From: Aplysia californica
Taxonomy: Eukaryota
DNA: 64,000 bases
NCBI RefSeq assembly: GCF_000002075.1
Contig: NW_004798086.1
Location: 205,743 to 269,742, forward strand
Direction of reading: 5' to 3'
This document shows, piece by piece, positions 2,026 through 63,892 of this stretch. The notes under the pieces are model-generated. The model did not search any database. It had not been told where the DNA came from and was given only the letters and a program-made list of their open reading frames with translations. Every line of letters begins with the position of its first letter. Within the stretch, counting starts at the first letter, position 1. The position numbers and the translations under genes are program-made.

Positions 2026-5000
2026 GTATAGATTGTGAAGCGCACAGAGCTTGCTGTTGAGCAGATTTGTGCAAGACAAAGTCTATCTCTATTATTACCA
2101 GAGGAATTCTGATCACTGATGATGTAGATCTAATGAGCGACCACTACAATAATGGGAAGTGGCTATCCTCACCCAGGGTGAGAATAAAAATACGATCCAC
2201 CTCTCACCCTGGGTGAGACTTGCCAGCGATGGCAATTCTCACCCGGTGTGAAGCAAGACCGGTTTTTCCTAATTTCGGAATACTGTCTATTGATGTGGAT
2301 GATCAAATTGACAATTTTTAAGCAAAGAACAAATGACGGTATAGCACAATTTAAGTAAAGTAAGCTAATTTGGTCGTCTACAAAGATGCTACGGCTATAA
2401 ATTTAACTTTTCGAATGGAGCCGAACTATGTGGGTCTCCATTTTGTTTTGCATAGAAGTTCTCACGCTAACTACTCTCTCTTTATCTATCTCTCCCCCCA
2501 CCCCTCTCTCTCTCTTTCTTTCTCACTGCTCAGACAAAATTGCACGCTTTCAACACAAGAACGTTTTAACGTTTGTTCATGGCGAACACTACACTGGTTG
2601 GCCTAGCTAGGCAATCACAGTGAACGCGCACCGCGTGAGAATAGCCAAAAGGCTCGCCTGCACTATTCTCATAGATAGAGACGTGGCCATACCATAACAA
2701 TGACATGAAATCTAGGCCTCCAGATCTAGATTTCAAGATCTAAAGTCTCGTATTAAATTAGAAAGTGTAGGCTGTAGATCTAGATTATAATCTAGATCTA
2801 ATGTTGAAAGAGTACTCATCGTCATCGTGACGAATGTAGAACAAACGTCGTTAGTTAATCGTTATGAATGAAATCTTGAATCTTATCTAATGACTGAACG
2901 ATTCACTTTCATAAGCAGCCTTCATCCTTCAAGTTCAAGTTACGAAGTGGCTAGCCTGGGAGTCTAGATCTAGGTTTGGCCCTATCGACTCAAACCTGTT
3001 AAGTACACAGGTCTTATTAGATCAAGATCTAGTAATTATTCAGGTTCAAATACATGCAAGTCAGTAAGGCACATTTTGGTTTTGTATAAAATACAAAACT
3101 ACTTTTGGCATTGCAAACTAAAAATTTCATTTACAATTACAGTCATCAATATTAAGTAAGGCTAGCCTGACAGACTAGCTGTCCTTAAGTACGGCTAGCC
3201 TAGCTGTCTACCCGTACTTAAGTACGGCTAGACTTCCAGTATAGCCGTACTTATCTTGGCCTTATTAACATTAGAAAACCGAGTGCTTTTTCGGTAGTTC
3301 CCACCCCCCAATTGTTATTCATATTGGTTTAGGCCCCAAGAGTAGGGGGGTTTCAGGGGGGTTTGCCCCCCTGACCTAATATAAATAAGGTGGGGGGTTT
3401 CAGGGCTCCCAGTGAAAAATTTTCCCAACCCCTGAACTTTGTCGGAGGATCGCGATAGACGCAACAAAGTGCACAAGTAGGCCTACAAATATTGCAAAAG
3501 GAAGAGCAAGAAAACGTCTTTAGGAAAAGAAAATGTTGCCAGATACATGCATTCGCATAAAAAATTATGAAAGTCAACCGATTTCGATAAAGACCGGAAA
3601 GGCAAAGTAAGTAGTCTAGTAGTTATGAACAGGAAGTAAAGGTGGGCGGTTAGAGCCAAACTACTAGATTCTATACATCGCTCTATTATTATGTTCTCCA
3701 AATTTTCGCATTTTTTCTCGGAGAAGATAAAATATGAAACCCGTGCAGACGCGAAGCGTGACGGAAACATGACCGCGCGATGCTCAGCCATTCCGCGGCC
3801 GCTGATCTCAGCCCCGGACTTTCTCCGAACCGCGAACCCCGGAAATTCGAGGATCCGCGGAAGTCTGAGAGCCCTGGGCTGAATTTTACCACAATTTAAT
3901 CTTTTGCGGTTGTTAAGTTTGAATCAAACGTATAGATCTAGTCTAGATCAAATATATATCTAGATCTACATCTAGATTCTAGATTTTTAGATCTACATCT
4001 AGATGTAGAATCTAGGTCAGGCTCAAATAAGGGGGATGGGAACTACCAAAAAAGCACCGAAAACCGGAGGTTTAAAATACTGTCATTCATTAAGGCATTA
4101 AGGCACCTGGTTTCGTCTCAAACTCAAATACAAATAGATCTAGAAATCTAGATCTAGATTCTACTTTAGGTTAGGTACTGCAAACTAAAAATTAATATTT
4201 TCAGTAGGCCTACTTTTTTTATGGTCAGTCTAGCCATCTTATCTAAGAAATCTAAACTCTCTCTACTCTAGATTTCTAGATCTAGATCTAGAATCTAGTC
4301 TAGATCTAGATTCTAGATTAGATTCTAAAAAGTACGGCTTGCCCAGCTGTCTAGTCTAGTGTCTAGCCGTAGATAGTATTCCACTCTTCAAAAATACCAT
4401 CGAGCTTCAAAAGTACATTGTTCGTGATTGATAGACGTAGCTCTATTCAAGCACTAAGGACTGTTTTGTCTCCTTCGTGTGTTCTCTCCACCCTCCATTA
4501 CTTCACTCACAATCAAAACAAAGTTGATCTACTTTACTTTATTAATCTACAGGACAAGTCAAGGGAGGCCAGTGCCACCAGAAAGAAAACATTACTCTTC
4601 TGAGAAAAGAGGTTATCATTGTCCTATTGCCAAATATGTGCAAAACCCCATAGCTTTGCCGATTTTTTTTTGCTTCATCTTTGTCACTCTGTCTTTCTCT
4701 TTTTAAAAATCTCCAAGTTTTTATCGACGTACAATCTCTTTTTGATGTTTTAAAAGCTTTCTTATGCTTCAAATATGCAAAATTCTATATCTAAAGCCTC
4801 AATATCTGAAGAATTTTTTTTTTCCTGCTAGTCACGTAGGCTTACTTCCCCTCAGGGTTTAACTGGCAAGTGGAAATACCAACTTTCGCAATCAAACTTT
4901 CCCCATCGATTGCCAAAGATACCAAGGCAGCGCCCACTCCACAACTCTAGATCCAGATTCTAGATCTACGGCACGTTCAAGATTACGTATACCGTAATGT

Positions 5001-5097
5001 AATATTTGGTTCTAGGTTATCTAGATCTAGACTCAAAATCTCACTTGTTTGTTTCACCTGCTTGTTGCACTAGATCTATACTTAGCCAACAATAAAC

Positions 5098-5973
5098 ATG
5101 TCCATGATGCTTTTAAGGCGGTACTTACCAAAAACGACAAGTGACACCATCGCGTTCTTCTTCCTTCTGGGATCAGTTCATGGAGTAGGTCTCTTTGAAC
5201 TATTTCACGTTTTGCCAACAATCTACTCTTCACCAGACCATGTCACATCCACAAACGGGTTCTCCCTCTACTACTTTCACGTATCAATGGGACTTTTTTT
5301 TTACTGCAATGTTGTGCTCAACCTATACAAAATTATTTCGACCAACTCGACCATCAGAGGGAAAGTTTTGCCCTCAATATTGAAACCTGGGGGCTGGCAT
5401 TTTTGTGTTGTGTGCGAAAGCAACGCCCCACCAAGATCATTTCATTGTCACATTTGCAAAATATGCATCCTCAAGAGGGACCACCACTGCACATTTACAG
5501 GAAACTGCATCGGACTCTTCAATCAGCGGTACTACATTGGACTTGTTCTATACATGGCGCTTGCTGCTGGTTACTCTTGCATGCTAAACATGGATTATTT
5601 TTACCATTTGTTTGGTAATATTTCTTTGAAAACAATCCTCACCGTTACTTTTCCACTTGTATCTTGGATGTTTGCACCAGCTGATAAGATGTCGGGATTT
5701 GAAACTTTCATGACTTCACTCTGTTTAGTTGGATTTTGTTTAAGCACTGGCTTGTTTATTTATCATTTGATAAATGCTGTAAATGGACAGAGTGTGCATG
5801 AGCGTACATACAAAATTCATGATTACAATCTTGGATGGATCGAAAATATTGGTTTAGTTCTTGGAACAAATTGGAAAATTGCTCTGTTATTTCCTTTTAT
5901 TAATTCTCCCATCCCCTCTGATGGTTTAGAATACGTGAACAGAAATCAGTATGAATCATTGAAGACTATGTAA
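5098..5973 (+). CDS. ZDHHC24: DHHC palmitoyltransferase (ZDHHC24-like), intronless CDS, 291 aa
   Basis: Complete Cys-rich domain CVVC..APPRSFHCHICKICILKRDHHCTFTGNCIGLFNQRYY, four hydrophobic TM segments, NGQSVHE (TTxE-like) and YNLGWIENIGLVLG C-terminal motif. The subfamily assignment is by resemblance only. Confidence 0.92.
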   Translation: MSMMLLRRYLPKTTSDTIAFFFLLGSVHGVGLFELFHVLPTIYSSPDHVTSTNGFSLYYFHVSMGLFFYCNVVLNLYKIISTNSTIRGKVLPSILKPGGWHFCVVCESNAPPRSFHCHICKICILKRDHHCTFTGNCIGLFNQRYYIGLVLYMALAAGYSCMLNMDYFYHLFGNISLKTILTVTFPLVSWMFAPADKMSGFETFMTSLCLVGFCLSTGLFIYHLINAVNGQSVHERTYKIHDYNLGWIENIGLVLGTNWKIALLFPFINSPIPSDGLEYVNRNQYESLKTM

Positions 5974-10900: not shown

Positions 10901-11662
10901 ATATTACATTGTTTGTGCTAATTTGTAGGGAATGAACATCTTTAACTTTAATGTGATATCCTTAGCGCTGTGTATGTGTGTTTCCATAAATTATAACGCA
11001 CCATGTGCGTCATTTTGCTGTGTTACAAGTCTAGTATTGTTTTGCTGTTCACTGTTCATCGGGGTTAATTATTGAGAAGAATGGTGTGTGAGAATGATGT
11101 GTATCACAACACGGTAGAGTCAGGCTCTTGTCAATTTTTGGCCATGTGGAGTTATTAGTATCATCTTTAAGTTAAGCTTATTTATTTGTCGCACTTTCAA
11201 TGAAAAAATTAGGCCTACCCATCTATCTTAAATAGAAGAAGTTGAGATTTTTGCAATTGAAGTAGGAGTTGTCGCCTGGTTTCAGTGATAAAATTAGCGA
11301 GAAACTGGCCGCCAAATTTCAGTAACTTTAGTAGGCCTAGTTTGAGAGTCCTTGAAAACGTTAAAATTACGCATTTTGTGCATTTAATCGACGTTTTTCA
11401 AATTCACACGAAGATGTATTTTATATAGACGTAAAAGGTGTTGAGCCAAAAACCAAAAATTCAATAAAAATTGCTAAGCTGGCGGGAAAAATGCTTGTTT
11501 CTTCGATTACATTTTTTGGACGAGCACCTGATTTCACGACAATACCTCTCATAATATGATATATTATGTGTTAGATCAGTGTGTTGTATAATTTTTCAAA
11601 AGTTTTGCATTTTTCTCATCAACTGTTGTGAAAGTTTCCCTTAAGTGCCACACTCACTATGG

Positions 11663-63357: not shown

Positions 63358-63892
63358 TATTGCTTTAAGGCTTTATCAGAATCAAAGATAGAAAAATATA
63401 AAAAGTAATAGATACTTTACAGTCTGTACAGCCACCACATAGAACACTCCCAGAGCGCATGCACTGGATCCATAACAGGCTCTGCCAGAGACACATTTAC
63501 TGAAAAGCACACGACACTGTCCAAATTCACGAGAGCCATTGAGTCCCAAAGTTCAAGGTCTTAGACGAGACATCTCGTCATGGTCATAACAGTTCAGTTT
63601 TAGTAGAGGTTTTACGGTGCTCGCAACTGCACGAGGTCATATGGAGCGCCAAAAGATTAGAGGTGTTACAAGAGAGTAACAAACATAAAAAAGAAGAGGG
63701 GGAGATAAGGACGATAGATGTTTGACGGGAAAGAAGGAGCGAACCACACCAGAGTAGGCCTACCTGCCATTCTTTCCAGGTTTCTACTTAAGGGCATGGC
63801 AAAATACCAGCAACTAGTTTCTTATCCTCGATATAGCAGGGTATGGTTTCCTGCACTCAAAATCCAATCATTAAGACATTTTCACCCATAAT

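Follow-up and report, generated by a model that had tools for sequence, protein, structure and literature searches.

Tc1/mariner-type transposons are excised by cuts a few bases inside the element, and what remains between two TAs once the ends have been joined is 2-4 of its first or last bases, as outlined in PMC6943129. The footprints of Sleeping Beauty are accordingly given as TA-CAG-TA and TA-CTG-TA (PMC6943129, PMC2874221). The TAGATC-type units of Aplysia californica resemble such footprints in that a TA is duplicated and the added bases correspond to the first or last 2-4 bases that an element would leave at its donor site. They are, however, of the GA+TC type and not derived from CA-type ends, and, unlike the Sleeping Beauty footprints, they are natural, fixed, very numerous, and chained into mixed arrays. 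Furthermore, a scar of this type would restore the preferred target of its own element, which the Tc1/mariner footprints do not. A second related system is that of the Fot/Fot-like transposons, which are characterized in PMC7386202 by HTH_psq together with HTH_Tnp_Tc5 at the N-terminus, DD35D, TIRs that mostly span 40-60 bp, and ends such as GAGTC, GAGTA, GAGAG, and GAAGT with a TA/TA duplication; four ichthyosporean members have DD36D and proteins of 849-863 aa (PMC7386202). The hosts of the Fot-like elements in that paper are fungi, protists, and algae, with no row for Aplysia and no occurrence of the word PHD, and Fot1-like sequences of oyster are mentioned in PMC7325037. The candidate parent element in Aplysia shares the GAG-type start and the TA duplication with this group, whereas the similarity between its two ends is limited to about 5-7 of 10 bases. 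No description of words or arrays such as those reported here was found in the literature, as judged by titles and abstract openings in a search that covered subscription journals thinly and had figure logos, Repbase, and bioRxiv supplements outside its scope.

The window, a stretch of 64,000 nucleotides, contained an uninterrupted ORF for a zDHHC palmitoyltransferase (5098..5973, plus strand; PF01529, E 7e-27). An earlier note had described the region upstream of this gene (2710-5085) as crowded with short TA-flanked palindromes and had read these as excision footprints. The crowding was confirmed for the GA-type words: TAGATCTA occurred 14 times, compared with a mean of 0.09 and a maximum of 1 in 500 dinucleotide shuffles (5.9 per kb vs. 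0.12 per kb in the remaining window), and TAGA(A/T)TCTA occurred seven times (shuffle mean, 0.07). On the other hand, the 7-mers did not exceed chance, with four TAG(A/T)CTA (shuffle maximum, 5) and one TAG(G/C)CTA (shuffle mean, 0.41). The three chains noted at 3931-4020, 4135-4165, and 4265-4330 were all present, and TAGGCCTA was found at two sites (3478 and 4205). A wider sample of 1.22 Mb, which consisted of contiguous blocks and gene loci and hence was not purely random, was compared with an order-2 Markov expectation. In this sample, TAGATCTA was enriched 24-fold (393 vs. 16 expected), TAGGCCTA 14-fold (110 vs. 7.7), and TAGAATCTA/TAGATTCTA 6.4-fold; TACATGTA, the classic CA+TG word of Tc1/mariner, reached 3.8-fold (105 vs. 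27), and TA-CAGT MITEs were present. Eight arbitrarily chosen blocks (323 kb) held 106 TAGATCTA, or approximately 330 per Mb. Along 254 kb of contig C816, two strong clusters of units were observed, one of which was the 2710-5085 cluster; the other, at C816:135700-139700, was equally dense. Elsewhere in the window, 55003-56729 and 56832-58554 were tandem copies of 99% identity separated by a run of N, which may be an artefact of the assembly, and the minus strand of 1-1400 carried broken gag-like ORFs of an LTR retrotransposon, partly under N, as recognized by eye from the translation.

Nested MITEs make up approximately 1,450 of the 2,376 bases of 2710-5085, with MITE D inside MITE A and MITE B inside MITE D. 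MITE A (2943..4390, plus strand; CGAAG…CTTCC) is split by MITE D, and the TAGATCTA at 2965 and the TAGGCCTA at 4205 belong to its consensus; two of its siblings show a 9-bp target duplication, which suggests that it is MULE-like. MITE D (3281..4058, plus strand) has GAAAACC repeated at both sides, and MITE B (3401..3876, plus strand; CAGGG…CCCTG) shows a 5-6-bp duplication in its siblings. Directly upstream of the region lies MITE C (2155..2688), which ends in GGAAGTGGC and GGCC and appears MULE-like from these ends. MITE C and its siblings also carry ACTTCCGG and AAAATGGCG, which resemble the ETS and YY1 sites of housekeeping promoters and which are possibly captured promoter sequence. As MITE siblings exist for much of the region, its units can be polarized as inherited or gained. 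The exceptions are five TAGATCTA in DNA for which the sample contained no siblings and which therefore cannot be assigned to either class, two of them (2775 and 2793) in 2689..2942 and three (4961, 5022, and 5071) in 4961..5079, just before the zDHHC start codon. Both TAGGCCTA sites were inherited, the one at 3478 with MITE B (present in 3/5 siblings aligning there) and the one at 4205 with MITE A (present in 10/12 siblings); the GGCC-type words of 2710-5085 are inherited MITE sequence.

Most of the arrays, by the same comparisons, were gained after the MITEs had landed. MITE B contains a TA+GTC insertion (3612..3618) and a TA+GATTC insertion with substitutions nearby (3665..3673), both of which are missing from all 12 siblings. 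The array at 3933..4015 in MITE D measures approximately 83 nt, whereas 4/4 siblings carry no more than one or two units there, over about 15-22 nt. At a single TA of MITE A, 27 nt were gained as the four-unit chain GATC.GAAATC.GATC.GATTC (4135..4163), which was found in none of 12 siblings and was also lacking in 5/5 copies of a second comparison. The largest array (4245..4327), with seven consecutive mixed units from 4269, stands in place of a short subterminal segment of MITE A that contains CTAG. The siblings of MITE B elsewhere were without the insertions, and 10 of 12 lie in loci with only 0-2 GA-type units, which indicates that the gain of units depends on place. MULE-like MITEs gather at the same places as the units, as expected from the preference of Mutator elements for promoters.

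Isolated insertions in ordinary repeats followed the same pattern, and the earlier note had named four of them as gains with a duplicated TA. At 14281..14289, TA+GAATC was confirmed by 31 empty siblings and no filled one, and at 11210..11217 two siblings have an empty TA at the place of TA+GGCC. The same repeat copy carries TAGGCCTA at 11332-11339 with three neighbouring changes, probably another scar. The TA+GGCC at 63755..63762 is likewise an insertion, but its siblings carry CA instead of TA, so that a CA>TA change must be assumed, and at 25895 the left flank aligned with neither of both siblings. A further isolated insertion, TA+GATC in an A-TA-T site with two empty siblings (49148..49155), was not among the sites named before. 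When sites with at least two aligned repeat siblings were taken as informative, GATC was derived in 6/28, GGCC in 3/5, GAATC in 1/1, CATG in 2/5, and GCC/GGC in 4/31 sites, and control TA-NNNN-TA words were derived in 18/172, spread over many words and often slippage-like. The remaining GATC sites were largely common to siblings (21/28); thus, copying inside repeats has also spread many units. The inserted words do not repeat their own flanks, and where relatives have a single TA, they add a second TA and several further bases. Single-copy contigs had 6-13 gap letters in the studied region (letter counts without positions). Judged from these alignments, the TAGATC-type units are copy-specific insertions at single TAs.

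Replication slippage offers another route to the arrays. In this view, the initial unit would be a rare product of whatever origin, the arrays would then grow mainly by slippage of TAGATC with later point changes, and the element would land there simply because the arrays are rich in CTAG. GATC is indeed the commonest neighbour of GATC (138/786 positions, both strands counted), and GAATC and GAAATC are simple extensions of an A run. Across the genome, 42 copies of MITE A had an insertion at one particular TA, of which three had gained TAGATC and two TAGCC; TA slippage and tandem or local duplication dominated the remainder. However, lone units occur at TAs without a template nearby, and none of the 12 chains of at least four units, two of which are from the window, is homogeneous, with two of them mixing GATC with GGCC. 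These mixed chains and lone insertions are also unlike a pure microsatellite, which would consist of homogeneous tandem units without lone insertions. Slippage leaves the first unit and the kilobase-scale clustering of unchained units unexplained, and as the main source of the arrays it seems unlikely to us, although it probably adds some units to them. Footprints of the hAT type, with hairpins at TCTAGA, could produce some of the variants seen in chains but would not yield lone units where the flanks are unrelated, and were rejected.

The footprint reading gains from an element in the same genome whose terminal bases (GA…TC) are those added in the GATC class. A search for DDE_1 in the genome retrieved a family of near-identical matches, and one pogo copy, on contig C16, was found to begin with GAGTC immediately behind a TA that follows three TAGATC units. 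Young copies lie on contigs C16, C249, C163, C42, and C50. A DNA search with this copy yielded 188 candidates; 40 of these were scored and included four further long copies of 98-99% identity, one partial copy of 99%, and over 30 copies of approximately 82%. The identity of the young copies indicates that the family was recently mobile. Of the 38 matches that cover the left end, 36 extend as far as the C of C-TA, and in 24 the similarity continues for one or more further units into TAGATC-like flank. In an older subfamily of approximately 1.33 kb, CTA precedes the left end in 44/47 cases (two being a duplicated pair). Right-end matches were followed by TAG in 50/74 cases (the 74 including seven from one tandem array), compared with seven for a reversed-pattern control; right ends were read from older copies and young copies at the left end. 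TA was present at both sides in four of five copies read at both ends, the fifth right end not being at the expected place, and one copy sits inside MITE C at a site with one TA in siblings. In three of these four copies, the right end runs straight into scar units, including a GACTC unit, the word expected from GA+CTC. The GAG…CTC ends predict GAGTC/GACTC as the 5-nt variant; contrary to this, GAATC/GATTC was commoner (6.4-fold enriched) than GAGTC/GACTC (2.2-fold).

The candidate parent combines a DDE_1 catalytic domain and a DNA-binding domain of the HTH_Tnp_Tc5 type with a TA duplication, in keeping with the pogo superfamily, and it has HTH_psq together with HTH_Tnp_Tc5 at the N-terminus, as in Fot/Fot-like members. 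The ends of the element share GAGTA and little more, in contrast to TIRs of 40-60 bp; by its domains it thus appears Fot-like, but it is not filed here as a Fot/Fot-like member because of these ends. The DDE spacer is 36 in P0001, a related transposase without the third D, and in relatives from Elysia, and 35 in those from Nucella and Scylla. The family is small (188 candidates) compared with approximately 330 TAGATCTA per Mb. Inverted-repeat scans for TA-GA/TA-GG elements (1.2-1.7 Mb) and repeat-boundary scans had missed this parent, since its ends share only about five bases and the element is rare. Neither these scans nor those of junctions and Tc1 flanks revealed a GG…CC or GAA…TTC element, one of several pogo families having been read at its ends, and junction traps at three repeat sites returned further scars but no element end. 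Thus, the expectation that a TA-targeting element with matching termini exists holds for GA…TC, where a pogo element with a TA duplication lies inside the arrays; no parent was found for the proposed GG…CC and GAC… termini.

Other sources within the genome fit less well. A young ISL2EU family has junctions that also read TAGA…TCTA, ends in AGA…TCT, intact THAP-HTH-DDE and YqaJ ORFs, copies that are approximately 99% identical, and motif-rich surroundings, and might thus have left the scars. However, its duplication is AT, which precedes 19/21 end matches, and one copy splits a MITE at AT, in agreement with PMC4482050. An ISL2EU scar would moreover add 8 nt in an A-AT-T context, whereas the derived events add 6 nt at TA and AATAGATCTATT occurs once. 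ISL2EU was therefore rejected as the scar source, and of the explanations considered here it is the least probable by a small step, with next to no weight. Copies of this family at four loci on three contigs (C309, C1092, and C45) carry THAP-HTH-DDE, YqaJ, and SAP ORFs, and the YqaJ ORF ends in a PHD-like finger (E 3e-4). They lie in motif-rich and MITE-rich places, one of them nested in a MITE inside a pogo copy. Tc1-type families were also rejected, as their 3' flanks end in AA…TT, C…G, or GC types and none in GA or GG (20 loci of 150 matches, with one wrong-side flank and one mostly N); the word matching the abundant AA…TT ends showed no excess (53 vs. 56). Two Tc1 copies with AA…TT ends have TAGATC-type sequence added at the TA duplication. 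A Tc1-like family with a long DDE spacer, seen at two loci (on contigs C238 and C72), apparently ends in GGC before TATA. It is a candidate source of TAGCCTA/TAGGCTA by way of GCC/GGC scars, and it is Sailor-like by the description in PMC8533490. MITE C was dismissed as a GG…CC parent in spite of its GGCC end, as it has no fixed TA flank. A profile search for Zator/ISAzo13 gave no matches, but the control was also silent, so that absence is not established.

The earlier note had further predicted that the units are enriched at the 5' ends of broadly used genes, and a small proxy test agreed with this. Loci of 3.1 kb around conserved domains were scored against a threshold of one unit per kb. 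DnaJ and proteasome-alpha loci in which an in-frame ATG lies a short distance upstream, which only roughly stands in for the start site, reached the threshold in 7/12 cases (median, 1.95; four DnaJ loci that were second matches of the same genes were dropped), compared with 14/107 arbitrary windows (p 0.0007). Other exons of these two families reached it in 2/19 cases, UBC exons in 2/30, BTB_2 (Kv/KCTD) loci in 0/15 (the 15 of 25 matches that covered the domain start, one duplicate left out), and homeodomain exons in 0/30 (the top 30 of 86 matches, which are not 5' ends). CpG observed/expected, used as a proxy for unmethylated promoters, did not distinguish the 17 clusters compared from the 135 windows that served as controls (p 0.14-0.54).

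Such enrichment near the first coding exons of housekeeping genes could also mean that the words are selected promoter elements, such as a TCTAGA-like core motif or factor-binding site that aids transcription. In Oikopleura, the identical hexamer TCTAGA is described as a positioned, promoter-associated spermatogenic core motif, also in a germline context (10.1101/140764). However, that account concerns one motif, placed upstream of the start site by 40-50 nt, whereas the Aplysia units are dispersed insertions and chains that are scattered over kilobases at both sides of first exons, arise in young MITEs and ordinary repeats, and match the ends of a transposon. A selected origin is therefore highly improbable, although some arrays may have been co-opted later as promoter elements.

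A different link to promoters is suggested by P0001, an 803-aa relative of the pogo transposase with DDE_1 and a C-terminal PHD finger (PF00628, E 5.5e-08). The best structure matches of this finger are KDM7, KDM5B, ALFIN-LIKE 3, and SPP1, whose PHD fingers bind H3K4me3; both tryptophans are kept, and aromatic residues surround the third cysteine pair, as in the sequences of H3K4me3 readers. P0001 is an older copy with altered catalytic residues, and the finger was seen there and not in the young copies; weak PHD matches were obtained in two of four Nucella relatives. The finger is thus a candidate promoter tether. An engineered fusion of the ING2 PHD finger with LEDGF redirected retroviral integration toward transcription starts, as described in PMC8149907, which makes tethering a plausible cause of the clustering. 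In both systems a PHD finger is attached to an integration machine, but the ING2 fusion is engineered and retroviral, whereas the Aplysia finger is part of a natural transposase and its binding is putative.

Taken as TA insertions, the TAGATC-type units are probably repair scars left by excision of the GA…TC-ended low-copy pogo element or its close relatives. Excision with short overhangs followed by fill-in repair would leave a TA-GA-TC-TA scar, and in a C-TA-G site this would read C-TA-GATC-TA-G, in which both TAs again lie in C-TA-G, so that the preferred target is doubled per cycle. Successive rounds of insertion and excision could then extend the arrays, and this would account for the chains. 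The previous suggestion that each footprint adds new TA targets, and that the arrays thereby amplify themselves, thus has a basis, but a sharper one than a mere gain of TA. Isolated GATC scars have a preceding C in 44% (17% for all TA), isolated GGCC scars a preceding G in 57% (20%), and isolated CATG scars a preceding A in 44% (31%), and several derived scars sit in A-TA-T or G-TA-A. The GGCC and CATG scars may derive from different families, each with a target preference of its own (G-TA-C and A-TA-T, respectively). A GGCC scar in G-TA-C leaves no new site of this kind, in line with the rarity of GGCC in long chains (4/56 units). As the elements themselves follow C in 44/47 cases, compared with 44% of isolated scars, other GA-ended families or a looser target in the past must be assumed, and further families are implied by this looser context, by the class of GAATC scars, and by the lack of a GG…CC parent. 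For the footprint idea as a whole, the core has stood, including the search for a matching element, and the GG…CC and GAC… ends have remained without a parent. The regeneration of the target by the scar and the presence of a matching, recently mobile element back the footprint reading.

A PHD finger that tethers the transposase to H3K4me3 chromatin would in turn pile up insertions near the starts of broadly expressed genes. We propose tentatively, at somewhat under even chances, that a PHD-tailed pogo transposase reads H3K4me3, lands on CTAG in germline promoters, and doubles this target on leaving, so that the arrays would form a fossil map of germline promoters and the TAGGCCTA and TACATGTA of other invertebrates would be records of sister families. 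If the footprint reading is true, one of the most over-represented non-microsatellite words of the genome (approximately 330 per Mb) would be mutational debris and not a factor-binding motif, which is of relevance to motif discovery on mollusc promoters. As each scar would recreate the target, this feedback loop could allow a small number of mobile copies to remodel promoter sequence over time. The finding also points to a putative natural chromatin-reader transposase whose scars would be a genome-wide read-out of its targeting, and the TAGATC arrays of Aplysia would then represent a map of germline promoter chromatin that is readable from DNA alone.
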